Source of the DNA: Candidatus Heimdallarchaeum aukensis
GTDB taxonomy: Archaea; Asgardarchaeota; Heimdallarchaeia; Heimdallarchaeales; Heimdallarchaeaceae
Assembly (NCBI GenBank): GCA_021513695.1
Contig: CP084166.1
Coordinates: 2,048,001 to 2,112,000, forward strand
DNA: 64,000 bases
Reading direction: 5' to 3'
Part shown: one piece after another, positions 22,968 through 47,136 of the stretch
Layout: every line of letters begins with the position of its first letter
Numbering within the stretch: position 1 is the first letter of the stretch
Notes under the pieces: model-generated
Databases searched by the model: none
Seen by the model: the letters and a program-made list of their open reading frames with translations, nothing else
Told to the model about the DNA's origin: nothing
Translations under genes and position numbers: made by a program

Positions 22968-23009
22968 TGATAGTGATAGTGATAGTTACACCTTTTTTGA
23001 TAGTGATAG
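22968..23009. repeat. TGATAG hexamer array (3 + 2 tandem copies, each preceded by TTTTT)
   Basis: ttttttgatagtgatagtgatag ... ttttttgatagtgatag, immediately after the element right repeat. Confidence 0.8.
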
Positions 23010-23012
23010 ACT

Positions 23013-23708
23013 TTATTTTTCTCTTATTGTTCCGTAAATTCTCATATATCTTGGTTTTATTTTTTTTCTTTTGATGTATCTTTTTATTATCGTCACATCT
23101 ACTATTATTTTTACTCCTATCATTATCATCAATATTGTTTCTATTGTTCCATTGAATACCAGTAGATAAATTAGGAATTCTTCATCTCCTGCTGCATTAG
23201 CTATTGAAGCTATTACTGAAACAATTATTGAATAGAATCCGAATATTTGGTATAATATACTTCCCACTTTAATATCTGTTATTTTTTTTATTCTTGTTAG
23301 CATTAGATCTATTTTTCTGAATCCTATTGCTCTTGACGCTAGACTTATTAGAATCGCAAAGCTTCCGAAAACCACACTTCCTATAGTGAATGGTTTTAAT
23401 ATTTCTCCTATTGCATAAATCAACAAATATGTTCTTCCTTGCATTCCTTCCTTTCTGACGTGGTCTTTAAAGTATAGGTCTGCTATTCCTCCGAAGCTTA
23501 ATGCTATTGGTATTAAGCTTAGAGCTATTACTGCAGCAAAAATATAATCAAAAAACCAATTTACTGCTCTTAAGTATTGTATTGTCCTGTTCGACAGATT
23601 TATTGCTGCTGCTATTGTAAACAAAATGCTTCCCGTTATTGCTAAAAAAGAAAATTTGTTTATTTCTGTGTTAAATATTTTCTTCTGCTTTTCTTCGTTT
23701 GAGACCAT
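23013..23708 (-). CDS. Hypothetical membrane protein, paralog of 27285-27950
   Basis: 231 aa multi-TM. Shared blocks with the 27285 protein (..GFG..F...F......R.EG, basic KRK-rich C-terminal tail). Confidence 0.6.
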   Translation of the reverse strand: MVSNEEKQKKIFNTEINKFSFLAITGSILFTIAAAINLSNRTIQYLRAVNWFFDYIFAAVIALSLIPIALSFGGIADLYFKDHVRKEGMQGRTYLLIYAIGEILKPFTIGSVVFGSFAILISLASRAIGFRKIDLMLTRIKKITDIKVGSILYQIFGFYSIIVSVIASIANAAGDEEFLIYLLVFNGTIETILMIMIGVKIIVDVTIIKRYIKRKKIKPRYMRIYGTIREK

Positions 23709-23723
23709 GCTTAAACCCTTTTT

Positions 23724-24593
23724 TTATACTTCTGATGCTAAGAGAAAGTCTGCTTCCTTTGCGTTAAATGAGCTTCTCACAAACGGAGCTGAAGCTACGA
23801 ACTTAAATCCCAGCTCATAACCTATTTTTTCATATTCCTTAAAAGTATCTGGGTGAACGTATTCTTCTATTTCTAAGTTTGAGCTTGGTGGTTTCAGATA
23901 TTGTCCTATAGTTAATATGTCACAATCTACTTTTCTTAAATCCTTTAATACTTGTATTACTTCTTCTTTTGTTTCTCCTAGTCCAACCATTATTCCTGAT
24001 TTAGTTAATATTTCCTTACTATATTCTTTGACCATCTTCAGTACTTTTAATGATATTTCATAATTTGCTTGTGGTGTGACTTTTTTATATAATCTTGGTA
24101 CTACCTCTACATTGTGATTAATTATGTTTGGTTTTGCTTCTATTATTGTTTTAATGCTCTCCTCTTTTCCTTTCATGTCAGGTATAAGTAGTTCTATTAT
24201 CAAATCTTCTTTATATTCTCTTAATTTTCTTGTTATTTCGGCGAAATGTGCAGCTCCTCCATCTGGTAAATCATCTCTTGTTACTGATGTGACTACTACG
24301 TGCTCTAAATTTAGTTTTTTAGCTGCTTCAACAATATGTTTTGGTTCCATGGGATCTAGTGGTTGTGGTCTTCCTGTTGTAATATCGCAAAATTTACAAT
24401 TTCTTGTACAGACATTTCCCATCACTAGAAATGTTGCAGTTTTATTTACAAAGCATTTTCCTATATTTGGGCACATTGATTCTTCGCATACTGTATGTAG
24501 ATGCAGTTCTCTCATAAGTTTTTGAACTTGTTTTATCTCTTCCCTCTGCACCTTCCCAATTCTTAACCATTCTGGCTTTCTTACATTTGGCAT
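23724..24593 (-). CDS. lipA: Lipoyl synthase
   Basis: Radical-SAM CTRNCKFC plus N-terminal auxiliary cluster cysteines (CEESMCPNIGKC). Confidence 0.9.
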   Translation of the reverse strand: MPNVRKPEWLRIGKVQREEIKQVQKLMRELHLHTVCEESMCPNIGKCFVNKTATFLVMGNVCTRNCKFCDITTGRPQPLDPMEPKHIVEAAKKLNLEHVVVTSVTRDDLPDGGAAHFAEITRKLREYKEDLIIELLIPDMKGKEESIKTIIEAKPNIINHNVEVVPRLYKKVTPQANYEISLKVLKMVKEYSKEILTKSGIMVGLGETKEEVIQVLKDLRKVDCDILTIGQYLKPPSSNLEIEEYVHPDTFKEYEKIGYELGFKFVASAPFVRSSFNAKEADFLLASEV

Positions 24594-24617
24594 TATTACT
24601 CACTTTTCTTTATTGTT

Positions 24618-25349
24618 TTATTGTTTTTCTATTTCTCTTTCTCTTTCTTTTTTTTCTATTTTTGTCAATAAATCTCTTGGTGAAAGATCCTTAATTTCTA
24701 TGTTAAATACTTTAGTAAAATTGTTTTTAAATTTCTCATACACTTCACGCATATCAACGCTTCTATTTAGAACTTCCTCGAGTGATATGGGTATAAAATC
24801 TGTTATTCCGCATGGAATTATCATTTGAAAATGACTCATATTTGTATTTACATTCAGTGCTAATCCGTGTGATGTTATATGCTTTGATGCTCTCGCTCCG
24901 ACAGCAGCTATTTTGGATATTTGACCATTATGTTCTATCCACACTCCAGGATATTCTTCTCTTCTGAAACCTTTTATGTTGTATTCCATTATCGTTTGAA
25001 TTACTACTTCTTCCATTTTGTGAACGAACTCGGGTATAGTGATTTTCAATTGTATTAAATCTAATAAAAAGTAAGCTACTAATTGTCCTGGGCCGTGATA
25101 TGTTACTTTTCCACCTCTTCTAATTTCAACAACTTCAATTCCTTCTTTTTCCAACACCTCATCACTAACAAGAATTTCACTTCTCTTTCCTTGTTTCCCT
25201 AAAGTAAAAACTGGTGGATCATGTTGTAACAATAACAGAAAATTGTCGTATTGTCTATCTTCCTCTTTTATGTTTCTTATTTTATTCTGTATCTCTAATG
25301 CGCTTAAATAATCGATAGTATCGTATTTTATAACAAAACATTCACTCAT
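24618..25349 (-). CDS. lipB: Octanoyltransferase (lipoyl(octanoyl) transferase)
   Basis: RGGKVTYHGPGQLVAY signature of LipB. Confidence 0.85.
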   Translation of the reverse strand: MSECFVIKYDTIDYLSALEIQNKIRNIKEEDRQYDNFLLLLQHDPPVFTLGKQGKRSEILVSDEVLEKEGIEVVEIRRGGKVTYHGPGQLVAYFLLDLIQLKITIPEFVHKMEEVVIQTIMEYNIKGFRREEYPGVWIEHNGQISKIAAVGARASKHITSHGLALNVNTNMSHFQMIIPCGITDFIPISLEEVLNRSVDMREVYEKFKNNFTKVFNIEIKDLSPRDLLTKIEKKEREREIEKQ

Positions 25350-25519
25350 TAAGTTATTTTTTTCTTATTCTTTTTACAGATTTCGATTGGACGATACCCC
25401 TAATATTTGTGATTAAAACTCTCTTTCTTTTATTTTTGTCCTTTTTTAAAGAAACACTAAATTCAAAAACTTGAAAAAGGTACTAATCAACGCTCCTATG
25501 AGATAAAAAGGTGAACTCA

Positions 25520-25786
25520 ATGAGCGTAAAAGTTTACAAAATTACTGGACATTATAAGAAGGGCAAACAAAGGATAAAATTCAGCAAGTTTGTTCGTGCG
25601 TTAAATCCACAAGATGCTTTGGAAAATATTTATGCAATTATGGGTAGTAAACATCACGTAAAGAGAACTGAGATCGTTCTTACTGAAGATAGCATTCGTG
25701 AAATTACTGATCCCAATGAAATAACAGATCAGTATGTTCATACATTCACAACTGACGATAACCTAAAAATCCCAAAAAAGGCTTAG
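25520..25786 (+). CDS. rplX: 50S ribosomal protein LX (L18Ae/L20A family)
   Basis: Start moved to ATG 25520 (AGGTGA 7 nt upstream). KVYKITGHYKKGKQRIKFSKFVRALNPQDALENIYAIMGSKHHVKRTEIVL fits the archaeal LX pattern. Conserved LX-pfdA-ftsY neighbourhood. Confidence 0.75.
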   Translation: MSVKVYKITGHYKKGKQRIKFSKFVRALNPQDALENIYAIMGSKHHVKRTEIVLTEDSIREITDPNEITDQYVHTFTTDDNLKIPKKA

Positions 25787-25787
25787 T

Positions 25788-26225
25788 GTGATAAGATTGG
25801 CAAGTAATAAACCCCAAATTGGCCAGGAAGAATTAAGTAAGTTACTTTATTCTGCTCAACAACTAGAGCAACAAGCTGGTCAATATCAGAAACAGCTAGA
25901 GGTCTTTCAAAGTTATTTAGCTGATATGAATAATGCTGAAAAAGCAATGAAAGAGCTCAAGAATATCTCTGATGAAAAAAATATTCTCGTTCCAATAGGT
26001 GCAGGTAATTTCATTCATGCATCAGTAAAGAAAACAGAGAAAGTTATTTCCTCTTTAGGTGCAGGAGTACATGCAGAGATACCAATCGACCAGGCATTAG
26101 CTAACATAGAAAAAAGAAAAACTGATGTAAACAATCAAATCTCACAAGTACAGGCAAATTATAACCAAGTAATTGAGAGACTAAAAGAAATCGATTCTTT
26201 TGTTAGAATGATACAACAAGGATAA
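25788..26225 (+). CDS. pfdA: Prefoldin alpha subunit
   Basis: Coiled coil - beta hairpins (ILVPIGAGNFIHASV, VISSLGAGVHAEIP) - coiled coil; position between rplX and ftsY. Confidence 0.8.
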   Translation: MIRLASNKPQIGQEELSKLLYSAQQLEQQAGQYQKQLEVFQSYLADMNNAEKAMKELKNISDEKNILVPIGAGNFIHASVKKTEKVISSLGAGVHAEIPIDQALANIEKRKTDVNNQISQVQANYNQVIERLKEIDSFVRMIQQG

Positions 26226-26248
26226 TCTTTCTTTACGGGGGAATTTTT

Positions 26249-27163
26249 TTGTTCAAAAATATGAAAAAAAGCCTTTCTTCTCTTTTGAAGAAGATCACTA
26301 TTGCCGAACTTAACCAAAAGACTATAAAAAAGGTAATTCACCCCCTTAAGGACATACTAATACAAAATGAAGTAGCGGTGGTAACAGCTGATAAAATTTG
26401 TGAAAGTGTTTCAGATAAGTTACTAAATGTTGAGTATAAACGTATGTCTTCTCCAAAAAGCCTTATCCTAGAAGCTTTACGCTCTTCATTATTAGAAATT
26501 TTACAACCAGAAGAGACAATTGATTTATTGAGTTTAGTAGAAGAATATAAAAAGAAAAAACAGCCTTTAGTCATTGCCTTCTTTGGAATAAATGGCGTTG
26601 GTAAAACTCTTTCAATAGCTAAATTAGGCTATTACTTGAAAAAAAATGACATTTCTTCTGTTTTTGCTGCGTCAGATACCTTTAGAGCTGGAAGTATACA
26701 ACAATTGGAGCAACATGCAAAAAAAGTAGGGGTAAAAATTATTTCTCAAACATATGGTTCTGATGCTGCAGCAGTAGCTTTTGATGCAGTATCACATGCT
26801 TCAGCTAAAGGAATTGATGTAGTTCTAATTGATACGGCAGGAAGGATGGAAACAAATAAGAACTTAATGGCTGAATTACAGAAATTAGATAGAGTTGTTG
26901 AACCTGATTTGAAGATTTTTGTAGGTGATGCTTTAACAGGTAATTCTTTAGTATCTCAAGCAGAATTATTTAATAGTAAGATAGGTATTGATGCTTCAAT
27001 TATTAATAAGATGGATGCAGATGTTAAAGGAGGAGCAACAATCTCTGTTGTGCATGCTACAAGGAAACCAATTTTATTTATAGGCGTAGGACAAAAATAT
27101 AATGACTTAAAACCATTTATTCCTGAACAAATAATCAAGAATGTTCTTCCAGATAAAATTTGA
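26249..27163 (+). CDS. ftsY: Signal recognition particle receptor FtsY
   Basis: SRP GTPase NG domain: GINGVGKTLSIAKL, DTFRAGSIQQL, LIDTAGR, INKMDADVKGG. Confidence 0.9.
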   Translation: MFKNMKKSLSSLLKKITIAELNQKTIKKVIHPLKDILIQNEVAVVTADKICESVSDKLLNVEYKRMSSPKSLILEALRSSLLEILQPEETIDLLSLVEEYKKKKQPLVIAFFGINGVGKTLSIAKLGYYLKKNDISSVFAASDTFRAGSIQQLEQHAKKVGVKIISQTYGSDAAAVAFDAVSHASAKGIDVVLIDTAGRMETNKNLMAELQKLDRVVEPDLKIFVGDALTGNSLVSQAELFNSKIGIDASIINKMDADVKGGATISVVHATRKPILFIGVGQKYNDLKPFIPEQIIKNVLPDKI

Positions 27164-27284
27164 ATTGAACCTTTTCACCTTTTACACTTGGAGTTCTATA
27201 GATAACTTGATTATTCACTATCGTAATGTTTAAAGAACTGATTTTTTGTTTGAAAACTACTAACGATAAGGTTTGTGAATTAAA

Positions 27285-27950
27285 TTGGACGTTTCTCACG
27301 AAGCATTACTACCGTTAAAAATAGAATATCATTTTAAGGAAACATTCATTTGGAGCTTTTCAGGTGTAATTTTGTTATTGCTTTCTTCATTATTCAACAT
27401 CATAGACCTTTTAGTTACAAGATGGGCTTATGTCGGATGGTTCCGACAATACCTAATAAGATCAACGATGTCTATTAGCTTTCTTCCCCTTGCAATAGGT
27501 TTTGGGATGATTTTTTCTAACTTTTTTGTAGGTTTTATAAGGCGAGAAGGAGAATTAGCAAAAAATTGGCTGATTGTTTATAGTATAGCAGAAATGGTCT
27601 CGCTTTTTACATTAAGTACAATAGTATTAGGTGCGTTTACTCTGCTAGCAATTATTTTCGGTAAATTGATAGCATTTATTTACTTAGACAGAGTTTTTTT
27701 GAAACTTAAAAAAAATGATGAGGTAAAGATAAATTTTAGTTTAATTTATCCGCTTTTTGGCTCCTACAGGATAGTAGTAGCTATAGTTGTAGGAATAGCA
27801 GCAAATGTAAGAGATTATGAAACAGAGCTATATTTGATAGCTGTAAATGCAACACTAGAAGCAATTTTTACCTTTATTATAGGAATAAAGTTGTTAATAG
27901 ACCTACTTAAAATTCGTTCTTATATAAATAGTAAAAGAAAGAAAAAATGA
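27285..27950 (+). CDS. Hypothetical membrane protein, paralog of 23013-23708
   Basis: 221 aa multi-TM, same block order and basic C-tail as the 23013 protein. Confidence 0.6.
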   Translation: MDVSHEALLPLKIEYHFKETFIWSFSGVILLLLSSLFNIIDLLVTRWAYVGWFRQYLIRSTMSISFLPLAIGFGMIFSNFFVGFIRREGELAKNWLIVYSIAEMVSLFTLSTIVLGAFTLLAIIFGKLIAFIYLDRVFLKLKKNDEVKINFSLIYPLFGSYRIVVAIVVGIAANVRDYETELYLIAVNATLEAIFTFIIGIKLLIDLLKIRSYINSKRKKK

Positions 27951-27967
27951 AAAATAAAATCTTTGAA

Positions 27968-28936
27968 TCACTCAAATACCTTTTTCACAGGTTCAAAGAT
28001 TTTTGCTAATTCGGTAGCAATAACTTTCTTTAAATCTAGAGGATGAAGATTTCCCTCAACAAAGGTTTTTTCTAATTCTTCATAATTATTGAAAGAAATA
28101 TCTCCGCCAAATTTTTCGGGTCTTTCAACAGTTAATGATTTAATGTTCGGAAAAATAATCAATTTTGCAATCTGAAGAACAGGATTGTCTTCAACGATTT
28201 TAGCAGGACAATATGCCTTCTTAAGTTTGCGTTGAATATCCTCCTTGGAATCTATGACAGATATCATCGATTCTGGGATTGAAGAAGACATCTTTGATCC
28301 TGGGCCCATGAGGGAAGAAATAAGAGGAGTGTGAATACATACGGGAGGTTTTAACTTTAATTCACTAGGGAAAACTTCTCTAGCTAACATGTGAATCTTT
28401 CTTTGCTCCATTCCTCCTTGTGCAGCGTCAAGATCAAGATATTTAATATCTAATACTTGCATAAGTGGATAAATCATCTGAGATACGGTAGCATTTTCAA
28501 TATCTCGAGCAATTTCTTGCATAGATCGTAAACCACGGTTAATAGTTACACGCAAAGCTAGACGGTGTAAGTCTTGAATGTATTCCTTGTCATATTGAAA
28601 CTCGCTACCAAGAACGATTTCAGGATTTTTAAGGCCTAAGGCACGCATAGCTTTTTCCCAGAGAACGCAATTTTCACTTATTTCCTCTTCAGTACCTTTT
28701 TTGTTCAAAAGTGCATGAACGTCAGCTAGTAAAATCTTAATATGAAAACCGGCACTTTCAAGATCTTTTAACTTCATTACAGTAACTGCATGACCAAGAT
28801 GAACAGGACCACTAGGTTCGTAGCCAGTATAAATGTTAGGTGAATCTTTAGTCTCTAAAAGCTCTTTTAATTCCTGTTCAGTAACAATTTCAGTAGTATT
28901 ATACTTAATAAGATCAATTTTTTTTGCAGTGTCCAT
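27968..28936 (-). CDS. tyrS: Tyrosyl-tRNA synthetase, archaeal type
   Basis: HIGH (HLGH) and KMSKS (KMSSS) motifs. Long colinear similarity to M. jannaschii TyrRS (YTGYEPSGPVHLGH, GGMEQRKIHMLARE, RPEKFGGD). Confidence 0.88.
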   Translation of the reverse strand: MDTAKKIDLIKYNTTEIVTEQELKELLETKDSPNIYTGYEPSGPVHLGHAVTVMKLKDLESAGFHIKILLADVHALLNKKGTEEEISENCVLWEKAMRALGLKNPEIVLGSEFQYDKEYIQDLHRLALRVTINRGLRSMQEIARDIENATVSQMIYPLMQVLDIKYLDLDAAQGGMEQRKIHMLAREVFPSELKLKPPVCIHTPLISSLMGPGSKMSSSIPESMISVIDSKEDIQRKLKKAYCPAKIVEDNPVLQIAKLIIFPNIKSLTVERPEKFGGDISFNNYEELEKTFVEGNLHPLDLKKVIATELAKIFEPVKKVFE

Positions 28937-29279
28937 TTAAATCAACAGTTAAAGTGGGTTAAAAACCATTTTACTAAAAATAATAAATACTTGTTGTTTC
29001 TGAGGAGAAAAAGGAAGAGAATTAGAACGAATAGTTCAATAAACTATTTTGATTTACAAATTAGCATCCTGTTTATTCACTTGGACATTAATAACTTTTC
29101 ATTTAATTGATAGTAAACTGGGCGTAGTTAAATATTGATTAGCTTAATTTTTGTAAGACAACTTTGCTCTCAAGGATAGTTAGAAAAAAACCATCTAAAG
29201 AAGAAAAAAAGAATAAAAGCTATTTTTATCTGAAAAAGATTTTTAACAGAAAAAATCAGTATACTACATAGGTGATTAA

Positions 29280-29513
29280 ATGGCAACAGCTTTTATATTA
29301 ATAAATAGTGAAATAGGAGAAGAAAAATCTGTTCTCGAACAACTGCTAGGGATGCCAAATGTGAAAGAAGCTCATGTAGTTTATGGTGTATATGACCTAA
29401 TAGCTAAAATTGAATCGGAAACAATGGATTCTTTAAAAAAGATTGTAACTGATAACTTAAGAGTATTAGAAAATGTTCGCTCAACAATGACTATGATTTG
29501 TGTAGAAAAATAA
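29280..29513 (+). CDS. Stand-alone Lrp/AsnC ligand-binding (RAM) domain protein
   Basis: 77 aa, AFILINSEIGEE...VKEAHVVYGVYDLIAKIESETMDSL, typical RAM fold sequence. Confidence 0.65.
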   Translation: MATAFILINSEIGEEKSVLEQLLGMPNVKEAHVVYGVYDLIAKIESETMDSLKKIVTDNLRVLENVRSTMTMICVEK

Positions 29514-29617
29514 CTAAGATAACAATAATTAGTTAATAAATAACAAAAAAAAAAGAAATTTGTCTCTTTTTTTCCTTTTTTCTTTTTCCCCATCTACTAC
29601 TTTTTGAAATAATTTTT

Positions 29618-30325
29618 TTATAGGTTGACATTTTGTTCTTCTTCAAAGTTATAAAGTGAAGCTAAAACGTGAGAAATAACAGAAAAAAGCTCTAATCCAT
29701 GAGGATAAATTGATAATCGATAATCAACAAATTTAGAGTCAATATTAAGGTGTCCATGGGAAAATCCACCAAAAATGAGCAGAGGATTTGAACAACGAGA
29801 AGAAAGAAGATAAGCATATTCACGAGAAGGTAAGACATCTCCCTTTTGAGAAAATTCAACAATAAGGTCATGTTTTTCACGAGCAGAAATTAAGAATTGA
29901 GTTAAAGATTGAGGATGAAGAGTGAGTAAAGGCTCATCAGAAAGAGGAGGAACACGGCCTTCCTTGAAAAGTTGAATCATAAGCCCCTTAAAACGATCTA
30001 AATTTTTAGGAAGACGAATAGAAGGATGGAATTCTATGATTAGATCATTAATGGTATGAATAAAGACACGAAGACGGCGATCTTGAGAAAGAAGAGAACC
30101 AAAACAGGCAAGAAGAGCTAAATGTGGAATATCAGGACGACCACGCTTGGATAAATTAGGTAAATTAGACATAAAACGAGAATGATAATTGGAATCAAGA
30201 ATAATATCACTAGGTTTTTTCTTTATCTTGCGAAAAAAGTTACGGACGGGTAAATTGGATAAAAGCTCTGAAGGAAAAGTTTCCAGAGAAGAATCAGCAA
30301 CAAGGATGGTATAAACATGGGGCAT
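29618..30325 (-). CDS. nep1: Ribosome biogenesis SPOUT methyltransferase Nep1/Emg1
   Basis: ILDSNYH ... RGRPDIPHLALL ... IHT ... RLPKN..RF.G ... GGFSHG, colinear with archaeal Nep1. Confidence 0.82.
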   Translation of the reverse strand: MPHVYTILVADSSLETFPSELLSNLPVRNFFRKIKKKPSDIILDSNYHSRFMSNLPNLSKRGRPDIPHLALLACFGSLLSQDRRLRVFIHTINDLIIEFHPSIRLPKNLDRFKGLMIQLFKEGRVPPLSDEPLLTLHPQSLTQFLISAREKHDLIVEFSQKGDVLPSREYAYLLSSRCSNPLLIFGGFSHGHLNIDSKFVDYRLSIYPHGLELFSVISHVLASLYNFEEEQNVNL

Positions 30326-30469
30326 AATTTGGCATGCGCAACAAACGTAATTAATTTTTCTGATACGAGGATAAATTGGAAGGAAAAGAAGAAGGGAAAA
30401 AAGAAGAAAAAAATAAGCGAAAAAACAACTTTTTAATGGGAAAAAAAAACAGTAATTAGGAATATAAAC

Positions 30470-31516
30470 ATGCCAAGTATTGTAAAATATGAAAATGGAA
30501 TAAGAGTGATAGATACAGAAAGAAAAACTAGTCTAATAGCTGATCCAACAACAATAGCAACAGCAAAAAAGAATACAGCAGCAATAATAACACATGCACA
30601 TACAGATCACGCAATAGCCTTCCCAAATGAAGGAATAAAAGTATACGCAACAAAAATAGCAAGTGAATTGTTTTCAACATTAACAGGAAAAAAAAGCAAA
30701 AATACATTTTTCATGGAATATAATAAAGAAATAAAAATTAAAGAAATGAATATAGAAGCACTGCCAGCAGGACACTTGCTAGGAGCAGCACAAATTCTGT
30801 TTAAAACAGAAAAAAAGAACATACTGTATACAGGAGATATAAGCTTTGGAAAAATGAAAACAGTAAAAGAAGCAAAAGAACCAGAAGAAAAAATAGACAT
30901 ACTGATAACAGAAGCAACATACGGAAAACCAGACCTATACTTCGAACCAAGAGAAACAGTAAAAATGAAAATATTCAACTGGATAGTAGAAAAAATAAAA
31001 GAAAATAACTTGGCAGTAATAAATGTGGGAAATCTGGGGCCCGCACAAGAAATAATAGCTTATCTAAATGAAATGCTAGAAATAGATATCTATTGCAACA
31101 AAAAAACAAGTAGAATAAATGAAGTGTACAAAAAAAACGGAATAAAACTAAAATACAAAGAAATAGAAGAAATAGAAGAAAAAATAGACCCAAAAAATAG
31201 CCTGATACTGTTATCAAGAGGAGAAAAAAAAATACCAGAAAAAATAATAAAAGAAAAAATAAAAGTGAAAAGAGCAATAGTAACAGGACAGGCAGCAAGA
31301 TTTAATTATACAAGTTTCGAAAAAGCTTTTCCGTTCTCGATGCACGCAAATACAAAAGAAATAGAAGAATACGCTAAAAAAATAAAACCAAAGAAAATAT
31401 ATACATTATATGGATTTGAAAGTGAATTGGCAGCTTATCTAAGAAAAAAAATAAATGTGGATGCTAGGCCATTAAAAATAGCAAATGAAAAATTACCAAT
31501 AGAGGAGTTCTTTTAA
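30470..31516 (+). CDS. Metallo-beta-lactamase-fold hydrolase (possibly beta-CASP-like, RNA-metabolising)
   Basis: HxHxDH motif (ITHAHTDHA), AGHLLGAAQI, TYG motif. 348 aa. Confidence 0.55.
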   Translation: MPSIVKYENGIRVIDTERKTSLIADPTTIATAKKNTAAIITHAHTDHAIAFPNEGIKVYATKIASELFSTLTGKKSKNTFFMEYNKEIKIKEMNIEALPAGHLLGAAQILFKTEKKNILYTGDISFGKMKTVKEAKEPEEKIDILITEATYGKPDLYFEPRETVKMKIFNWIVEKIKENNLAVINVGNLGPAQEIIAYLNEMLEIDIYCNKKTSRINEVYKKNGIKLKYKEIEEIEEKIDPKNSLILLSRGEKKIPEKIIKEKIKVKRAIVTGQAARFNYTSFEKAFPFSMHANTKEIEEYAKKIKPKKIYTLYGFESELAAYLRKKINVDARPLKIANEKLPIEEFF

Positions 31517-31607
31517 AGAATATAAATCTAAGAAAGGAGAAAAAGAGACCCAAAAAGAAAAATTTAAGAAAGAAAGAGAAAGAGTAAAACGAAAAAAAGT
31601 CAAGACA

Positions 31608-31733
31608 GGGGCATTAGCTCAGCTTGGTTTAGAGCATCCGGCTCATAATTTGCGTCCTAGAAACAGTCTAATTCATTAAGAACGCAAAAGAGCGACCGGA
31701 TGGTCATCGGTTCAAATCCGATATGCCCCACCA
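31608..31733 (+). tRNA. tRNA with CAT anticodon (elongator Met or Ile2) carrying about 49-nt intron at 37/38, CCA encoded
   Basis: Acceptor GGGGCAT/ATGCCCC, D-arm GCTC-AGCTTGGTTTA-GAGC, anticodon stem TCCGG, loop CTCATA|intron|A, T-arm ATCGG-TTCAAAT-CCGAT. Lacks the initiator GGG/CCC anticodon-stem signature. Confidence 0.8.
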
Positions 31734-38648: not shown

Positions 38649-38701
38649 TACTTCTAACTTTTCTTATTTTTATTTAAACGCTTTCAATTGTCTATTCTTG
38701 G

Positions 38702-39331: not shown

Positions 39332-39404
39332 TGATTGTACAAAATTGGACTAATAAATTAATTTTTGTTTACTTAACTATTTATTCCGAAGTTTTATATT
39401 AACA

Positions 39405-40028
39405 TTGGTAAATGTCGTCACGCAAATGACAATCGAAGACATTGATGCTTCAGAATTTGATATTACTTGTCCATCTTGTAAAAGTAACGATGTTGAGGTC
39501 TCTCAGAAGATTCTAGATATTCCCCATTTTTCAAAGGTTTGGTTGTATAACATTAAATGCAATAATTGTGGTTACAAACATAATGATATGTTAAACCTTG
39601 AATCTAAGGAAGCGACGAGATATATTTATAAAGTAGAAAACGCCAAAGATTATACTTCTAAAATAGTTCGCTCTGCCAATGGGACAGTGAGAATCCCTGA
39701 ATTAGGCGTTATAATAGAACCAGGACCAAGTTCAACTGGCTTTATCAATAATATAGAAGGTGTACTGCAAGATGTGAAAGAAAAAGTCCTATTTTTACTT
39801 AAGAATGCACAAAGCGAAGGTGAACGAGAAAAAATTATCCAATATATTAACCAGTTAAATAGTTATATAGAAAGAAGTTTACCTCTTACATTTATTATTG
39901 AAGATCCACTAGGAAATAGTTTAATTGTCCCATATGATGAAGAAAAACTAACTGTTGAAATATTAACCGAGGAAGAAGCATCAAATCTAAAAACCGGGTA
40001 TTTAATTTTCTCAACAAAAAAAAGTTAA
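39405..40028 (+). CDS. ZPR1-type zinc-finger protein
   Basis: CPSC ... CNNCG C4 ribbon followed by a ZPR1-like beta-rich domain; about 200 aa as in archaeal ZPR1 homologs. Confidence 0.55.
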   Translation: MVNVVTQMTIEDIDASEFDITCPSCKSNDVEVSQKILDIPHFSKVWLYNIKCNNCGYKHNDMLNLESKEATRYIYKVENAKDYTSKIVRSANGTVRIPELGVIIEPGPSSTGFINNIEGVLQDVKEKVLFLLKNAQSEGEREKIIQYINQLNSYIERSLPLTFIIEDPLGNSLIVPYDEEKLTVEILTEEEASNLKTGYLIFSTKKS

Positions 40029-40043
40029 AGATGAGTTGATTTT

Positions 40044-41294
40044 TTGAAGCAGATAGTTGACTTTCATATCCATAGTCCTTTCTCGCGTGGTGTATCAAAA
40101 AACATGCAGATTTCTATTTTAGCTGCAGAAGCAAGAAAAAAAGGACTTGATATAATCGGAACCGGAGATGTTTTCCACAAACAATGGAATAAATACCTCC
40201 AAGAAAATTTGTCTTATGAAGTTGATGGATTATACAGCCCTTCAAAGAAAGAATATAATACATTGTTTATTGCTACAGGAGAAGTTGAGGATAACGAACA
40301 TATTCATCATTTAGTTATAGTTCCTAGTTTAAAAACTGGTATCGAGATAGCAATAGAGTTTGAAAAAAGGAACAAAATAAAGCTATCTCGCTATGGTGGG
40401 AGACCTAGAGTGGACATGGATGCTTCTCAACTTGTAGATTTGGTAAAAGAGTATAACTGTTTAATTGGTCCTGCACATATATTTACTCCTTTTACTTCAA
40501 TTTTTAGAGAAAATAAATATTCATCACTAAAAGACTGTTTTAAAGAATCAACTGTTAAGGTTGACTTTGTAGAGCTCGGCCTTTCTGCAAATTCTGCGAT
40601 GGCCGATAAAATAAAAGAACTTTGGGGGTATACTTTTTTAAGCAATTCAGATAGCCATTCTCCTAAATCATCGAAAATAGGACGAGAAGCAAATGTGATA
40701 GAGGTTGATGATGTATCTTTCAGTTCAATCCAAAAGTCATTAGAAAAAGGAAAGGAGTCCAAGATTATTTTGAATGTTGGATTAGATCCTCGTTTGGGCA
40801 AATATCATTTGTCTTTTTGCTATAAATGTAGAAGAAGGATAGTATATATTCATAATCCTTCAAAAATTTATGATGAAAAGTTCATTTATTTTGAAAAAGA
40901 AAATGAGAAACAATTCATGATTTCAATATCAGCTAGAAAACTACGTTGTCCTGCATGTAATGGTTTACTTAAATTAGGCGTAAATGACAGGGTAGAGTTA
41001 TTAGCAACTACAAATAAAAAGAACACAAAACGTCCTCCTTATTTTGATAGTGTGCCTCTCGTGTCACTTATTTCTAAAGGACTTAAAATAAAGAACCCTG
41101 ATTCAAAAACGGTGATAAAAGAGTATAACCGTTTAATAGCTACATTTGAAAATGAATACAATATTTTACTTAATGCATCAATAGAAGAAATTAGAAAAGA
41201 GAATGATTATATTGGTAAAAAAATAGAGTTGATGAGAGAAAATAAATTGGAAATCATTCCTGGTGGAGGGGGAAACTATGGGGAATTGGTTTAA
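40044..41294 (+). CDS. PHP-domain phosphoesterase with C-terminal zinc ribbon (COG1379-like)
   Basis: DFHIHSPFSRG PHP motif I, further His/Asp motifs, CxxC ... CxxC near residues 260-305. Confidence 0.6.
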   Translation: MKQIVDFHIHSPFSRGVSKNMQISILAAEARKKGLDIIGTGDVFHKQWNKYLQENLSYEVDGLYSPSKKEYNTLFIATGEVEDNEHIHHLVIVPSLKTGIEIAIEFEKRNKIKLSRYGGRPRVDMDASQLVDLVKEYNCLIGPAHIFTPFTSIFRENKYSSLKDCFKESTVKVDFVELGLSANSAMADKIKELWGYTFLSNSDSHSPKSSKIGREANVIEVDDVSFSSIQKSLEKGKESKIILNVGLDPRLGKYHLSFCYKCRRRIVYIHNPSKIYDEKFIYFEKENEKQFMISISARKLRCPACNGLLKLGVNDRVELLATTNKKNTKRPPYFDSVPLVSLISKGLKIKNPDSKTVIKEYNRLIATFENEYNILLNASIEEIRKENDYIGKKIELMRENKLEIIPGGGGNYGELV

Positions 41295-42058
41295 TTTATA
41301 TCGCGAATAAACGCTATGATTTCTTTAAACGCTAATTCTCTATTTTCATCCACTGTAAGAATATGATCTCCTTGTGGTATTTTTACAAGTTTCTTTTTAC
41401 ATTGTAGTTTCTTGTATATTTTTTCAGCGTTTTTAGGGTTAACTGTCTGATCTGATTGACTTTGGGTTAAAAGAACAGGATTATTAATTCTCTTAATGCT
41501 TTTGTGTAATTTTCTATGGAATTTTAAAATTTGATAAGCTCCGTAAGTAGAATCATATGAATATGAAAAAAGATTGTGTTCAATATACCATTTAATACGT
41601 TGTTCACTCCTTGGAATATGTTTCTTGAATATAGCTAATAATGGAGTAATAATTTTGTGTAAAGGTTTGAATTCATAAAAGGCATTTATGGTAAAGATCC
41701 CGTCAACATGGAATAAGCTTCCAAAGTATAAAGAAAGAGCTCCGCCTAATGATACCCCCCCAATAATTACTTTGTCATATTTTTTTGAATATTTGTCATA
41801 AGCATCTTTGATATCATTGATCCAATCTGTCCATTTTATTTTATCTAAATCTTTGGAGGAAGATCCATGACCTGATAGTAAAATACCGTAGCAATCATAT
41901 CCTTCTCTAACTAAAAATTCAGCTAAAGGACGTGTTTCTGTACACGACGCACCAAAACCATGTACTAGTAAAATCAAAGTATTTGTTTCTTTTTTTTCGG
42001 CTTTTAAGAAAAATGGTTGCGCCAACTCTTTTAATTTATCCTGATTCATTTTATTCAT
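41291..42058 (-). CDS. Alpha/beta hydrolase (esterase/lysophospholipase-like)
   Basis: HGFGAS oxyanion region, GxSxG nucleophile elbow (GGVSLGG), C-terminal Asp/His region. Confidence 0.7.
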   Translation of the reverse strand: MNKMNQDKLKELAQPFFLKAEKKETNTLILLVHGFGASCTETRPLAEFLVREGYDCYGILLSGHGSSSKDLDKIKWTDWINDIKDAYDKYSKKYDKVIIGGVSLGGALSLYFGSLFHVDGIFTINAFYEFKPLHKIITPLLAIFKKHIPRSEQRIKWYIEHNLFSYSYDSTYGAYQILKFHRKLHKSIKRINNPVLLTQSQSDQTVNPKNAEKIYKKLQCKKKLVKIPQGDHILTVDENRELAFKEIIAFIRDIN

Positions 42059-42175
42059 AATTTTGACCCTGAAACATTATTTTTTTGATTTCAAATTCAG
42101 AAATCACAAAATTTCAACACATATAAATATTATTCTACTAATATATATAATAGAACTTTTTAGGGTAGAATCTAA

Positions 42176-44419
42176 ATGACAAAAGAAAAAGAAATTTTAG
42201 AACAGGATGAGAAAAAGAAAAAGTGGAGTTTTCTAGGTTGGGGGTTGCTGTTTCTTCTAATTTGGACAATAGCTCTTATGTTTATTCTCGAGGTAGCTCT
42301 GCATCCTGCAGATAGTATTATAGCGACAATTGTTGCTTATGCTCTAGGATTACTAGGCCTAGGTGTTTTCGCAGGGTTGACTCGAAGTAAATGGAAAGTT
42401 TTGGTAACCTTTCCCTTAGCAATACTAATTATCTTTGGTGCAGGTTACCTGCTACACTTAGTTAACGCTCCTATATATAATCCATTAGCTCCCGTTTCAG
42501 AAAGAGTTTTTGTGATTGTAGATGAACTAGATAGTATTGCTAATACTTCTATAGCTGACAATATTCCCGCAGATCTATTGAATAATATGGAATCTATCAA
42601 ACAATATGCTGATTTTGCATTTGTAGTTGATTTAATTATTAGTTTACCGATATTTATCCTTGGTACGTTATCTGTGACGTGGATAGTTCAGATATTTACT
42701 CAGAAACCTAAATGGTGGGTGATTTTCTCTGCGTTTTTTGCTTTAATATTTTTCATGATAGGAATGATTATGACTCCCTTTGTTCACTTAGTTATTGCGG
42801 GCGTTGTTGACCTAGGAACTAATATGAGCATCGGAGCTTTATATATGGTAAATGGACTTTCATACCTACAAGATTTACAGAATGCAGATCAAGCAGATAT
42901 TAATGAAGCAGTAGCTAATCTGAATTTAGCTTCAGAATGGTTTCAAAAAGGAGGAGAAGATATAAAGGTATTCCTAGGCGCGCTTTCTATGTCACCTTAT
43001 TTAGGAGATGCAGCCGATGACTTTAATCACCTGTTCCAAGCAGCATTCATACTCTTAGGTGGAGCAGGAACGTTTGTTAATGGGTCATATCAACTATTCA
43101 AAGGATTTGATCTGATTTCAAAAGCTCTGAATACAAGCTCTGGGTCATTAACTATGCAAGATGATCAAGTTAAACAAGCAATAGACGACGATTTGTTTAA
43201 TCAAGGTATTGACTTTATTAATGAAGGTCTTGAACTATTTGATAATAGTAGCTATGTTTTTGATGATGCTTTAACTGAAATAAAACAAGTTGATTGGCAA
43301 GAAATAAAAACTGAACTTCACGAATTGCCGATAGAAGGGACTGAAGAAATAGATTCAACTTTGGACCAGATGGAAGGTTATCTCAGCATCTTTGAAAATG
43401 CAACAGGATTGATTGATGTACTAATATCAAAACCAACATTTGCTAATGGTAGTCAAAGTAATTATGCAACATTAATTCATTTCTTCTTAGGGGCTTATAA
43501 TATAATGAAAGCTCAAGAAATTATAGGTGATGAAACTAACTTTGCAGGAACAGAAGTTTACTTTAACAGGGCTGGTGAACACTTTAATGTTACATATAAT
43601 GCATTACAAACAAGAACTGTTGCTCAGTTAATACATTCAGACACCCCAATATTAAATGGGACTGTTGCTTTCATTGTTGATATGACCGGATTGGCCGCTG
43701 ATTTAAGTTTCTTCGGTGGAGATATGGGGCCAACACTTGTTGGATTAAATAGCACACTTTCAGTTTTGTCTAATGGATATGAAAATGTAACTGATTATGA
43801 CTCAATTAGAGCAGATATTTCTGATAGTATAACAGAATTAGATAACCTAAAGGATACTGCTCATTCGATAGATAATAGGATTTTAGGAATTCAAGAAAAC
43901 GCAACAGCAAACATTTATGGAGAGTTCAGTGAAACAGCAAGTGATTTTGCATCTAATTTCCAGAAATTTAATATTACTTTGAACCTCGAAAATGCTTATT
44001 ATATTGCCCAATCATTCTATTATCTATTTGGTGCTATGAAAGATCTTAAGGACATTAAAGGATATATTGAAACTGGACAAACTGCTTTTGATAATTCAGA
44101 TTATTTGACCGCCTATAATAACTTCTTAGCCGCTAATACATCATTAGATTCATGCATCGATCAGATGTGGAATGCAAGTTACTACTTTAACCAAACTATA
44201 GGCAATGGAATGGGACAGTTAAGTAGTTCTGGTGATGCAATTGCACTAATTTACTTCTCTCTAGTATCTATACAAACTGACATAAACGTTATAACTGGAA
44301 TCGCAGGGGGTGGTAGCCCAACTGAAAGCGAAATTACTGAAGTAAATAATCGCTTAGACCACATTAACACAGTATTAGTGAATGTAAACAATGAACTAGC
44401 ACAAGTAAAAGGACAATAA
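42176..44419 (+). CDS. Large membrane-anchored extracytoplasmic protein rich in N-x-S/T sequons
   Basis: 747 aa. About 5 N-terminal TM helices, then a about 500-aa hydrophilic domain with over 14 N-x-S/T sequons (NGS, NSS, NAT, NVT, NGT, NST, NIT, NTS, NAS, NQT). Confidence 0.6.
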   Translation: MTKEKEILEQDEKKKKWSFLGWGLLFLLIWTIALMFILEVALHPADSIIATIVAYALGLLGLGVFAGLTRSKWKVLVTFPLAILIIFGAGYLLHLVNAPIYNPLAPVSERVFVIVDELDSIANTSIADNIPADLLNNMESIKQYADFAFVVDLIISLPIFILGTLSVTWIVQIFTQKPKWWVIFSAFFALIFFMIGMIMTPFVHLVIAGVVDLGTNMSIGALYMVNGLSYLQDLQNADQADINEAVANLNLASEWFQKGGEDIKVFLGALSMSPYLGDAADDFNHLFQAAFILLGGAGTFVNGSYQLFKGFDLISKALNTSSGSLTMQDDQVKQAIDDDLFNQGIDFINEGLELFDNSSYVFDDALTEIKQVDWQEIKTELHELPIEGTEEIDSTLDQMEGYLSIFENATGLIDVLISKPTFANGSQSNYATLIHFFLGAYNIMKAQEIIGDETNFAGTEVYFNRAGEHFNVTYNALQTRTVAQLIHSDTPILNGTVAFIVDMTGLAADLSFFGGDMGPTLVGLNSTLSVLSNGYENVTDYDSIRADISDSITELDNLKDTAHSIDNRILGIQENATANIYGEFSETASDFASNFQKFNITLNLENAYYIAQSFYYLFGAMKDLKDIKGYIETGQTAFDNSDYLTAYNNFLAANTSLDSCIDQMWNASYYFNQTIGNGMGQLSSSGDAIALIYFSLVSIQTDINVITGIAGGGSPTESEITEVNNRLDHINTVLVNVNNELAQVKGQ

Positions 44420-44557
44420 TTTTTCTTTTTTTTTACACTATAATCAAAAAATAATTCTCCTTTTTTTATTCTTCTAAACTTTTTGTATTGCCTAGTGGGG
44501 AAATTTTTTAATAACGAATAAATCAATCATAGTATAGTATATCTTTTAGGTGTTAGT

Positions 44558-45052
44558 ATGGAACATGTTTATCTCATTTATGACCACTCTGTAAGAGAAT
44601 TTAAAGAACCTGCAGATCAAAAAAAGTTCAAATCAATAACTCAAGGCTCTCCCGATGAAATAAGTACAAGTTTAGATAGTGTGGGCGTTGATGGTTTGTT
44701 AATATTTAACAGAGAAAGAAATGAATGGAACTTAATATTCGCAAAAAGCTTAGGATTGGTTGCTCAAAGAACGGCAAGAAGGCAAGCAGATACAATAAGC
44801 AGATCAGGATTTTTGTTATCTTCAGGAGAACGGGTGGGGATACGTAGTAGATTACAGCAATTAACAGAAGATAATATAGGGGATTTACATAAAACTGTGC
44901 AGCAAAAATATATTGTTTCTGATTTAGTTGGTCATGTGGGAGATTCAAGAAGTGAACGTTTTCCAGCTAAAGTCTATGCAACAAAAGAATTAGAAGAAAA
45001 AAGAAATGAGGTTGAGAAAGAGCCAAAACAAACTACAAAAGAAAATATATAA
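44558..45052 (+). CDS. Hypothetical protein
   Basis: 164 aa, no recognised motif. Confidence 0.5.
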   Translation: MEHVYLIYDHSVREFKEPADQKKFKSITQGSPDEISTSLDSVGVDGLLIFNRERNEWNLIFAKSLGLVAQRTARRQADTISRSGFLLSSGERVGIRSRLQQLTEDNIGDLHKTVQQKYIVSDLVGHVGDSRSERFPAKVYATKELEEKRNEVEKEPKQTTKENI

Positions 45053-45323
45053 GACGGATAATGTAGAGTAAACACATTGATTACAACCTTTATTTTTTTG
45101 CTTTAAGGCTCCTATCCTATAGCTAAATTCAGTAAAATTAAGAAACCACAGTAATTTCTTCATTGTAAGACTGTTTTAGCATTGAAACTTTTTATTGGTT
45201 TTTCTTTTAATAGATGCCTGTAATAGCATCTGTCCCTTAAGATTTATATATAGTTTAAAAAATAAGATAATCTGTTGAGACACATTTATTAACTAGAACG
45301 AACTTACATTTTTTGGTGTTTAA

Positions 45324-46220
45324 ATGTATCAAACACAAGTAAATCCTTTTGAATTATCAAAAAGAAAGATATCTGAAAGTTCAGGAAAAATAGCTAAATT
45401 GCTTATAGCTGTTGTTGCGCTATTGTTTGTACTAATAATCCTTGTGATGATAATGCTAGCTATAGCAGGAGGAAGTTCTGTTGTTATTGACCCAAGTAAT
45501 CCTTATGCGGCAGTTGGTGCAATGTTTAGTTCCTTTATTGTTCTAGGTATCTTTATTCTTTTAATTGCTTTAGCCTTTATTGTCATTCAAATAATGGTGC
45601 TAGTACAATATTACAAACTTGGACAAGGCTTTTCAGAAGTTGCTAATATGGACCCCTCCCTGCCAAATGCGAAAAATATTAGTTTTGGAATCTATGGCTA
45701 CATCATGGGTTATGTTTTAGGCCTTATTATTCCTGGAACCTTTGGAAAAATAATGGCACTTTTAGGTACTTTCTCATTAGCTGCAGGTTTCTACTTCATT
45801 TATGAAACGTTTGAAGATTTTAGAAAACAAGGTAGATTTGGTAAACCCGCATCTAAAAAATTGTTTATTGCTGTGGCTTTTACACTAATAGGCAATATAA
45901 TGAACTTTGTTAACAGCATTGCTATGATCGGTGTTGGCGGTTTCTTTGGTTTAATTGGTTTTATTCTTTTGATAATTGGATTAAAAGATCTAGAGCGAGA
46001 TATTCTGTTGGTTACACCAACGGAAACAGTTCCTACACAACCACCCACACAAACCCCCTATCAAGCTCCAACTTCTGTACCCACTTCTCCAGCTCCTGAA
46101 CAATCTAATCAATCACCACAGACGCAAGACGCAACCCAAGTAAAGTTTTGTCCCAACTGTGGAACAAAAAATGAATTACAAGATAAGTTTTGCATATCTT
46201 GTGGAACAAAACTAGATTAA
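45324..46220 (+). CDS. Membrane protein with P/T/Q-rich linker and C-terminal double zinc ribbon
   Basis: Several TM helices; linker PTETVPTQPPTQTPYQAPTSVPTSPAPEQ; C-terminal FCPNCGTKNELQDKFCISCGTKL. Confidence 0.6.
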   Translation: MYQTQVNPFELSKRKISESSGKIAKLLIAVVALLFVLIILVMIMLAIAGGSSVVIDPSNPYAAVGAMFSSFIVLGIFILLIALAFIVIQIMVLVQYYKLGQGFSEVANMDPSLPNAKNISFGIYGYIMGYVLGLIIPGTFGKIMALLGTFSLAAGFYFIYETFEDFRKQGRFGKPASKKLFIAVAFTLIGNIMNFVNSIAMIGVGGFFGLIGFILLIIGLKDLERDILLVTPTETVPTQPPTQTPYQAPTSVPTSPAPEQSNQSPQTQDATQVKFCPNCGTKNELQDKFCISCGTKLD

Positions 46221-46279
46221 GTTCCCATCTTTTATTTCTTTTTTTAAAAATAGTTGCTTTTTTAACTTCATTGATTGCT

Positions 46280-46318
46280 CGATAGTGATAGTGCTGATAG
46301 TGATAGTGATAGTGATAG
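46280..46318. repeat. TGATAG hexamer array (CGATAG TGATAG tgc TGATAG x4)
   Basis: gctcgatagtgatagtgctgatagtgatagtgatagtgatagcac, about 150 bp downstream (3') of the minus-strand HTH gene. Confidence 0.8.
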
Positions 46319-46467
46319 CACTTTTTAAACCAAAATCGAAATGTTTTGAGAAAAAAGTTATTTAAATTAATTTAAGGTTAGTCCTAAAAAAACATACTGA
46401 CAGCTTTTTCGATTATCAACCAAGGATAGAATTTTCTAAATGGGGTGTTTTCTTTTTTTATGGTTTT

Positions 46468-47064
46468 TTATTCTGTATTGCTTTCGCCCATGGCCGCACT
46501 TAAAATTTCTACTTCCTGAGCTACGGACTTGATTTTAGAAGCGATAACTCTCTTCTTTTCTATTTCTTCTTGATCTTTAAGCTCTGGGAGATACTTTCCT
46601 ATAGCCGCAGTTGTTCGTATTCTTACACTATAAGGAAAAATGGTTTTATTACGACTTTTAAGTTCAGCAAGGATGCCCACGGTCCAACGTTCATTCTCTT
46701 CATCTTTGTGAATGTGAAATTTTGTTACATCAACATCACACAGGTTAAGAATTGATGAAAGAAAAGTTTCTATATCCTCATTATTAAATTGACTAATATC
46801 TAAAATCTCTCCTTTTTCAAATTCTTCTTCATGAAAATTGTATATCTGTTTTTTATCATGTATCTGTGAAAAGCGTTTATCTCTCTCGGTTCTTTTTTTA
46901 GCTGGTTGCTTTTTTCCTGTTTCATACTTATTTCTGTTACGAGCGACCCAAACACTAACAGCTTTTCCTGAACCAAGACCTATAATGGGAGCGATTTCTG
47001 AGTATGTATATCCTTGTTTTTTTAGCTCTTCTATCTTATTCCATCGCTCTTGACCTTGTAACAT
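46468..47064 (-). CDS. Small HTH-domain protein (putative DNA-binding regulator; N-terminus resembles transposase/terminase-small-subunit-type HTH)
   Basis: N-terminal ELKKQGYTYSEIAPIIGLGSGKAVSVWVARN helix-turn-helix; charged C-terminal region. Flanked on both sides by TGATAG motifs. Confidence 0.55.
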   Translation of the reverse strand: MLQGQERWNKIEELKKQGYTYSEIAPIIGLGSGKAVSVWVARNRNKYETGKKQPAKKRTERDKRFSQIHDKKQIYNFHEEEFEKGEILDISQFNNEDIETFLSSILNLCDVDVTKFHIHKDEENERWTVGILAELKSRNKTIFPYSVRIRTTAAIGKYLPELKDQEEIEKKRVIASKIKSVAQEVEILSAAMGESNTE

Positions 47065-47111
47065 TATTTTTCATCTTTTTTGGTTTTTTTATTTAGACTA
47101 CCATTCAATTA

Positions 47112-47136
47112 CTATCATTTTTTGATAGTGCTATCA
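47112..47136. promoter_or_regulatory. Operator-like inverted TGATAG half-sites upstream of the HTH gene: CTATCA-TTTTT-TGATAG-TG-CTATCA
   Basis: About 50-70 bp upstream of the start codon at 47064 (minus strand); same hexamer as the arrays at 22968 and 46280. Confidence 0.5.

Follow-up and report, generated by a model that had tools for sequence, protein, structure and literature searches.

Short runs of the hexamer TGATAG recur at separate places in a 64,000-nucleotide (nt) stretch of the Candidatus Heimdallarchaeum aukensis chromosome (contig CP084166.1, positions 2,048,001 to 2,112,000; hereafter the window), and two of them lie on either side of a small helix-turn-helix (HTH) gene, which raises the question of whether gene and hexamer form one regulatory system. 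The source organism is an Asgard archaeon with a closed 3.08-Mb chromosome, and the gene, an open reading frame (ORF) of 198 amino acids (aa) on the reverse strand (46468-47064), is a 100% match to K9W45_09315 (UJG40036.1), annotated as a hypothetical protein. Comparison with orthologous and remotely homologous loci leads us to regard K9W45_09315 as probably an autoregulated, sequence-specific HTH repressor with its own operator, plus auxiliary arrays. A preliminary description of the window had reported TGATAG sites at three loci, the last two flanking the HTH gene, and a diverged copy of the palindrome ahead of an Arf-like GTPase gene; re-reading of the sequence confirmed all of these, the last as a fourth cluster of the form TGATAR. 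The features are as follows, with the HTH ORF placed between the sites 46281-46318 and 47112-47136.

22968-23009, forward strand: orphan array of 3 + 2 TGATAG units, with T6 before each block.
46281-46318, forward strand: 3′ array of five perfect and one partial TGATAG, 150 nt past the stop codon of the HTH gene.
47098-47117, reverse strand: direct units after the palindrome, TGATAG at 47117-47112 and a degenerate TGGTAG at 47103-47098.
47123-47136, reverse strand: candidate core operator, TGATAG-CA-CTATCA in gene orientation, a 6-2-6 inverted repeat.
47163-47178, reverse strand: putative promoter core, resembling a B recognition element (BRE) and TATA box, AGTAAAAATTTTTATA in gene orientation.
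61854-61880, forward strand: Arf-like cluster, reading TGATAA-G-TATCA-AC-TTATCA-T-TGATAG, immediately ahead of the Arf-like GTPase gene (61884-62822).

The orphan array consists of TGATAG x3 at 22968-22985 and TGATAG x2 at 22998-23009, the order within the 3′ array is cGATAG, TGATAG, a TGC interruption and TGATAG x4, and the set at 47112-47136 reads CTATCA-TTTTT-TGATAG-TG-CTATCA.

That these sites are more than random simple sequence, as the preliminary description had held, is borne out by shuffles and simulations, in which such clusters are far rarer. TGATAG occurs 53 times in the window against 36.2 ± 5.3 in dinucleotide shuffles, and there are 3 clusters of at least three TGATAG/CTATCA units where 300 third-order Markov simulations gave 0.023 on average; with the relaxed form TGATAR/YTATCA, four clusters were observed and 0.055 expected. 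One-mismatch pairs elsewhere in the window are at chance (10 loci versus 10.2 ± 3.2). The clustering is therefore a stronger signal than the overall excess of the hexamer. Across approximately 60 kb of DNA from the 63–70% relatives (L003, L138, and L005), no TGATAR cluster occurs other than those on either side of the HTH gene.

The orthologous loci come from H. aukensis, H. endolithica, and two lineages of metagenome-assembled genomes, L003 and L005 (both Heimdallarchaeaceae), with 63–91% protein identity; the L003 and L005 proteins are 70% and 63% identical to K9W45_09315, respectively. The synteny of the HTH gene with genes for a MobA-like NTP transferase, FdhA-like/NuoF-like proteins, ZPR1, and AcnX is kept in at least four genomes. 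Upstream of the ATG, all four lineages present AGTAAAAATTTTTATA, a gap of approximately 26 nt, the inverted repeat TGATAG-CA-CTATCA, and one to three direct TGATAG units. AGTAAAAATTTTTATA is identical at 16/16 positions among three orthologous spacers, and TGATAGCACTATCA plus direct units is unchanged in the four lineages despite the diverged spacer. When the most diverged spacers were aligned three ways, no blocks were common to all except the 16-mer, the 14-bp inverted repeat, and the TGATAG unit that follows it. The degenerate TGGTAG of H. aukensis is a perfect TGATAG in H. endolithica, and in L005 the final direct unit ends 3 nt ahead of the ATG.

Based on the archaeal promoter consensus, we read AGTAAAAATTTTTATA as a likely BRE/TATA element, and given this reading the inverted repeat would lie at approximately +1 to +15, with the direct units filling the leader. 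Archaeal repressors typically block polymerase recruitment from sites around the start or in the leader. The inverted set had been proposed to occupy the promoter/operator position, and it is indeed located between the conserved TATA/BRE-like box and the start codon. If the sites were instead slippage-prone microsatellites, or the sites of another factor, whose closeness to the HTH gene is accidental, the copy number of 3 versus 4 units between close strains and the presence of (TGATAG)n in many unrelated genomes would be readily understood. However, the 63–91% orthologues all have the non-tandem 14-bp inverted repeat, unchanged and equally spaced from the TATA-like box, and remote homologues in unrelated contexts have the same architecture made of TGATAAC (described below), which makes such an accident very unlikely.

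A further conserved block in this spacer, CTTTAGCTAGA...TTCCGACAAAAA.CCT.AT (window 47205-47245, reverse strand), lies approximately 35 nt upstream of the TATA-like box; it is found also at L126 9825-9870 and L003 9835-9880, and is common to H. aukensis, H. endolithica, and L003 while missing from L005. It could be the site of a second regulator or part of a divergent transcript. The HTH gene and the MobA-like gene are separated by an unusually long spacer (560 bp), which includes a 24-nt tandem repeat, TTAAAATCAAATTCTAAATCTTAG, in 2.2 copies (window 47300-47351).

In K9W45_09315, a basic linker of variable sequence (residues 49-90) joins the N-terminal HTH part (~1-48) to a conserved C-terminal domain (91-195); in the alignment, the N-terminal 47 residues and the C-terminal domain of ~100 residues are both highly conserved. 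AlphaFold2 (AF2) reached a predicted local distance difference test (pLDDT) score of 40 with three sequences, while with seven sequences the HTH part became usable, showing helices at 4-16, 21-28, and 33-48 (pLDDT 74–88, about 80), so modelled, residues 4-48 form a credible classical three-helix HTH. The C-terminal part was modelled as alpha-beta-beta-beta-alpha with pLDDT of only 60–70. For this domain, a PDB profile search produced no meaningful match, nor did Foldseek, which returned nothing from the PDB at E ≤ 0.001, a search made weak by the low-confidence model.

Searches of K9W45_09315 against Pfam, PHROGs, NCBIfam, and PADLOC gave no family above threshold; below it, Terminase_5 and the RhlR/LuxR-type HTH matched weakly, both at the level of the HTH. 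A function as terminase small subunit was rejected, as the Terminase_5 match (E = 0.027, 14.8 bits) falls under the 20.3-bit cutoff and is confined to the HTH part; terminase domains were recorded in none of the contexts looked at. Among 5.8 billion proteins, a word-indexed search identified three clusters at 90% identity, the H. endolithica orthologue (UJG42575.1) sharing that of K9W45_09315, and an exhaustive profile search of 1.84 billion representatives gave 14 matches at E ≤ 1e-3, approximately ten of which are true relatives. A metagenome scan with the family alignment yielded two loci, both of already known types, and IMG/VR held no relative that we could find, a TGATAAC-pattern match there (L140) being unrelated. 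P0006 (1557 aa, 11 HTH stretches) was left out of the family as a generic multi-HTH protein, with 46% GC and no motif. On these comparisons, we assign the 198-aa protein to a previously undescribed, very small HTH family.

Five remote homologues with 23–38% identity were read in their own DNA: P0004 (227 aa), P0005 (243 aa), P0009, P0010, and P0013. Upstream of P0004 and P0005 are a TATA box, a TGATAAC-GTTATCA palindrome, further inverted pairs, and two to three direct TGATAAC units that extend up to the ATG. Approximately 200 bp past the P0004 stop codon lies a second array, with eight GATAAC units, situated in the coding linker of a paralogous HTH gene and translated as ...NIDNVITQNDNANDNVIT... 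Five direct CGATAAC units precede P0009, and its linker contains another four (MDNKSDNNDNKSDN); P0010 is preceded by three units. No hexamer on the P0013 contig is more frequent than TGATAA, which is present 19 times in 1660 nt. The motif excess in the 120 nt upstream of the remote homologues reaches Poisson P values down to 5e-8. The layout is thus retained across the family while the word shifts from TGATAG to TGATAA(C). The suggestion that homologues of the protein might be accompanied by the same hexamer held for the orthologues, which keep TGATAG, whereas the remote homologues combine this layout with another word. The idea that the G versus A of the hexamer follows a Ser/Arg difference in the recognition helix was considered and rejected, since P0013 has Ser yet is accompanied by TGATAA arrays.

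The surroundings of the remote homologues are entirely different from those of K9W45_09315 and resemble mobile elements, the sole shared component being the HTH gene. Two tandem giant genes lie divergently next to P0004, which is similar to the layout of aloposons (Wu et al. 2022, PMC8813620), and P0009 comes after a run of very small ORFs. Given that it is the only component common to these loci, the HTH product is the most economical candidate for the binder of the repeats. Arrays of GATAAC in the coding linkers of homologues carried by mobile-element-like DNA were noted at L130 10884-10961, L134 6150-6195, and L137 1715-1747, where they are translated as Asp-Asn-rich repeats (DNANDNVITQ, DNKSDNNDNKSDN); these look like predicted DNA-level binding sites that are tolerated in a disordered coding segment.

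Of the four lineages, H. aukensis, H. endolithica, and L003 have the array 3′ of the HTH gene. It lies 90–210 nt past the stop codon, in a spacer that is poorly conserved even between the two Heimdallarchaeum species. Its copy number varies between close strains (3–4 units, plus one, plus one degenerate unit), from which we infer slippage with maintenance of the array. In L003, the neighbouring Zn-ribbon membrane-protein gene (a 42% identical orthologue) is inverted and the array is still found 3′ of the HTH gene. The idea that the array is what is left of a decayed paralogous gene was rejected, since the sequence separating it from the stop codon contains no HTH-like frame. Read in the direction of the HTH gene, the units of the array are CTATCA; the upstream direct units and the 3′ array of Heimdallarchaeum are therefore oppositely oriented and would be complementary within one transcript. 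This would be expected of an RNA-level element in which UGAUAG of the 5′ leader pairs with CUAUCA of the 3′ untranslated region, circularising or silencing the mRNA. However, the upstream and downstream units of L134 have the same orientation, the arrays of L130 are mixed, L005 is without a 3′ array, and the gene product is itself an HTH protein, and we therefore give an RNA element hardly any credence.

The orphan array lies 4 nt past the stop codon of a membrane-protein gene (23013-23708, reverse strand) and follows a long T-rich tract downstream of a tRNA-Leu gene; at the syntenic site of H. endolithica, an array of 4 + 2 units is present (L041 5083-5130). H. endolithica has a further array at L091 (CP084167.1, ~2,156,300-2,156,420; L091 4303-4416), with CTATCA x4 plus one more and an oppositely oriented GTGATAGCAGC approximately 75 nt before it, in a 570-bp spacer between a gene for a 148-aa winged-HTH-like protein and one for a MoxR-type ATPase; the corresponding position in H. 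aukensis falls outside the window. A scan of contigs for (TGATAG)3 gave at least two H. endolithica sites among the matches listed, where no H. aukensis site appeared; the H. endolithica arrays known so far, at least three, provisionally all lie within ~95 kb.

For each of three independent tandem arrays, that of L091 included, the orientation is CTATCA relative to the gene whose end immediately precedes it, and two of the three are between convergent genes and after T-tracts, which suggests a role of the arrays at gene ends, as a roadblock or as an anchor for looping. In a stronger form, the arrays at 22968 and 46281 would be polar roadblocks or termination aids at convergent gene ends, bound by the HTH protein and serving 3′-end formation instead of the control of promoters. 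The position of both arrays after T-rich, terminator-like tracts between convergent genes, together with the shared orientation, is what such roadblocks would call for. There are three cases only, though, the L003 array is upstream of a co-directional gene, and roadblocks would be compatible with autoregulation instead of replacing it; as an explanation of these two arrays we consider them unlikely.

The non-randomness of the sites, their position and conservation, and their pairing across the family with a changed hexamer are shown by these comparisons; that K9W45_09315 binds them, whether it represses or activates, and what the distal arrays do are inferred. The recognition unit of the HTH protein would be the hexamer TGATAG, most likely bound by a dimer at the 6-2-6 repeat TGATAG-CA-CTATCA some 26 nt downstream of the TATA/BRE-like box, with further copies of the protein probably occupying the adjacent direct units of the leader cooperatively. 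The bound protein would block the recruitment of RNA polymerase or early elongation, giving negative autoregulation. The 3′ array and the array at 22968-23009 would be further binding platforms for the HTH protein, most likely with an auxiliary part, either in cooperative looping to the operator or as a protein roadblock at gene ends.

Several observations weigh against this proposal. The placement of the operator relative to transcription depends on a start site read from the TATA-like box only, and a tandem period of 6 bp is unusually short for HTH proteins, so that occupancy of every unit is uncertain. The 3′ array is dispensable, given that L005 is without it, and the orphan arrays are not at promoters. 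L134 has a low TGATAR score, which it owes to its unit being CGATAAC. The Arf-like site is absent upstream of the 70% and 78% orthologues (L138 and L139), in genomes that keep the HTH operator; the Arf-like GTPase gene was accordingly rejected as a conserved regulon member, and the cluster before it is, with low confidence, a candidate extra target. Finally, more than 100 unrelated genomes, the majority of them bacterial, have sporadic (TGATAG)n of at least three copies, and the word alone is therefore not diagnostic. Among the matches listed, none of these unrelated (TGATAG)n loci encodes a member of the HTH family, and we take the informative signal to be the pairing of TGATAG with the HTH gene, as opposed to the word by itself.

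Several known systems share parts of this arrangement. The omega repressor (ParB_pSM) of plasmid pSM19035 uses contiguous 7-bp WATCACW units, present in both orientations over its own and other promoters, and these arrays double as centromeres (PMC9499535). As with omega, the repeats described here are short, contiguous, and non-palindromic (6 bp here and 7 bp in omega), occur in direct and inverted form with several arrays per replicon, and overlap the promoter of their own gene, implying cooperative binding; the shared core ATCAC (CTATCAC here and WATCACW in omega) is taken as coincidence. Unlike omega, a ribbon-helix-helix (RHH) dimer that works with a ParA ATPase on a plasmid, K9W45_09315 is modelled as a three-helix HTH, has no such ATPase recorded nearby, and is encoded on an archaeal chromosome with a putative TATA/BRE promoter. 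Of the features of type Ib partition, short contiguous repeats in both orientations over the own promoter are present; no ParA/Walker-type domain was recorded within ±10 kb in H. aukensis and H. endolithica, nor in L130, and no RHH fold was found, the N-terminus being modelled as an all-helical HTH.

Iteron initiators, such as RepA of pPS10, RepE of F, and pi of R6K, combine direct repeats with an inverted repeat at which the dimer represses its own gene. Their iterons are 17–22 bp long and helically phased, Rep consists of two winged-helix domains, and the origin includes an AT-rich unwinding element. The Heimdallarchaeum locus resembles these plasmids in using the same word as direct repeats and as an inverted repeat at its own promoter, and differs from them in its 6-bp units, small protein, chromosomal synteny, and lack of Rep similarity, with no match to a Rep family in Pfam, NCBIfam, or PDB sequence searches. 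The preliminary description had proposed a regulator with an operator or iteron system, possibly autoregulatory; the conserved upstream footprint and the layout around remote homologues support a regulator with its operator and iteron-like sites, while the 6-bp units and missing Rep similarity argue against an iteron-type replication initiator.

MDR1, Phr, and the Lrs14-type and TrmB-type proteins are autoregulated archaeal repressors that act at or just downstream of the TATA box. The candidate operator likewise lies between the TATA-like box and the start codon of its own gene, where a block of TBP/TFB or of polymerase would be expected. These repressors belong to described families (winged HTH, Lrp, and TrmB), whereas K9W45_09315 matches no curated family and, unlike them, is associated with multi-unit hexamer arrays, some away from promoters. 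Archaeal viruses and plasmids also encode small regulators, for example the RHH proteins F55 of SSV1 and SvtR of SIRV1, whose targets are tandem repeats in early promoters. The remote homologues recall their setting, being on mobile-element-like contigs with sites that abut the TATA box; the differences are an HTH in place of an RHH, other motifs, and the absence of a relative in IMG/VR.

These comparisons bear on a reading in which the locus originates from a mobile element and serves maintenance, the HTH protein binding the arrays as centromere-like or origin-like sites and the inverted repeat serving autoregulation only. Direct arrays with an inverted repeat at the own promoter are the classic layout of Rep/iteron and omega/ParG systems, remote homologues occur in mobile-element-like contexts, including the one beside two tandem giant genes, and the several H. 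endolithica arrays within ~95 kb would also fit. On the other hand, the ±10 kb of both Heimdallarchaeum species in which no ParA/Walker ATPase was recorded, the sequence and fold searches without Rep-like or winged-helix initiator similarity, units of 6 contiguous bp in place of iterons of 17–22 bp, and chromosomal synteny next to Fdh/Nuo-like genes in at least four genomes all speak against this reading, and we hold a maintenance module to be distinctly improbable. We are similarly doubtful of a broader version, in which the HTH protein and the TGATA(G/A) arrays would be a domesticated Asgard mobile-element module that organises a chromosome region of ~100 kb beyond autoregulation, its gene-end arrays acting as centromere-like, iteron-like, or polar roadblock/insulator sites.

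To our knowledge, almost nothing is established experimentally about the cis-regulatory DNA of Asgard archaea. The locus offers a concrete pair of a 198-aa protein and a 14-bp putative operator with defined hexamer units, and the TGATAAC of remote homologues provides a natural specificity variant of TGATAG. It also introduces a new HTH family common to Heimdallarchaeal chromosomes and to mobile-element-like contigs of marine sediments; this would be a new protein family with a known kind of job, and the gene-end arrays may be flagged as a further feature. Should autoregulation be all that is true, the circuit is of an ordinary type in an interesting organism, while the domesticated-module version, if true, would mean that the archaea closest to eukaryotes possess a system of protein–DNA arrays that organises part of a chromosome.

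The HTH system had also been linked to an insertion in the tRNA-Leu gene, as a partition-like or excision-control-like component. A 42-bp att-like direct repeat (20054-20095 and 22884-22925) marks both ends of the insertion, and the orphan array, which does adjoin its right end as described, starts 43 nt to the right of the right att repeat and is thus outside the insertion, within which there is a single TGATAG match. The HTH gene is 23.5 kb from this array in conserved chromosomal synteny, and neither an integrase nor a ParA-type ATPase was recorded within ±10 kb of it; the link to the insertion is not supported. Nor is control of excision or integration in the manner of an excisionase (Xis) or recombination directionality factor (RDF), as gene and sites are neither inside the att-bounded segment nor at its ends.

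The insertion itself measures 2.83 kb (window 19978-22925) and occupies the 3′ end of the tRNA-Leu(TAG) gene (20000-20084). One frame is free of stops for 967 codons, which is remarkable at 31% GC; the first ~340 codons are T/C-rich and of low complexity, and the last ~600 are without a family match. In H. endolithica, the insertion is shortened to 1.4 kb (L041 5200-6540), its distal part replaced by two copies of a CRISPR-like repeat, ATTTCAATCCTATCTTAGTCCAATTTTAAC, with a 36-nt spacer; since this genome carries the shortened insertion, it provides no empty site for comparison. Wu et al. described an orphan CRISPR array, ‘C4’, adjoining a tRNA gene (PMC8813620), and the ATTTCAATCCTATCTTAGTCCAATTTTAAC repeat pair of H. 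endolithica may be this array.

Elsewhere in the window, a perfect 38-nt tandem repeat, GAAATAAAGACTCTAAAAGAAAAAATAGGTATAAAAAA (2.3 copies, 100% identity, 48578-48663), overlaps the MobA-like gene (47627-48622) at its 3′ end and reaches the stop codon of the FdhA-like gene (48664-51375, reverse strand). Less than 30 nt past a giant ORF of 2795 aa (254-8641, forward strand) lies a presumably intron-containing tRNA gene (8668-8768, reverse strand), which recalls the aloposon layout of ‘giant genes next to a tRNA’ (PMC8813620), the left part of this region being outside the window; a kinship with the giant genes beside P0004 was rejected, there being no similarity. In the window, Rfam found nothing but tRNAs, including two that were missed by ARAGORN (the one at 8668-8768 and another at 31608-31730, forward strand), both presumably intron-containing given their lengths of 101 and 123 nt. 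Finally, an Eco57I-like type IIG restriction-modification fusion gene (10327-12684, forward strand) sits between a NusG/Spt5 gene and a gene for an ADP-forming acetyl-CoA synthetase-like protein.

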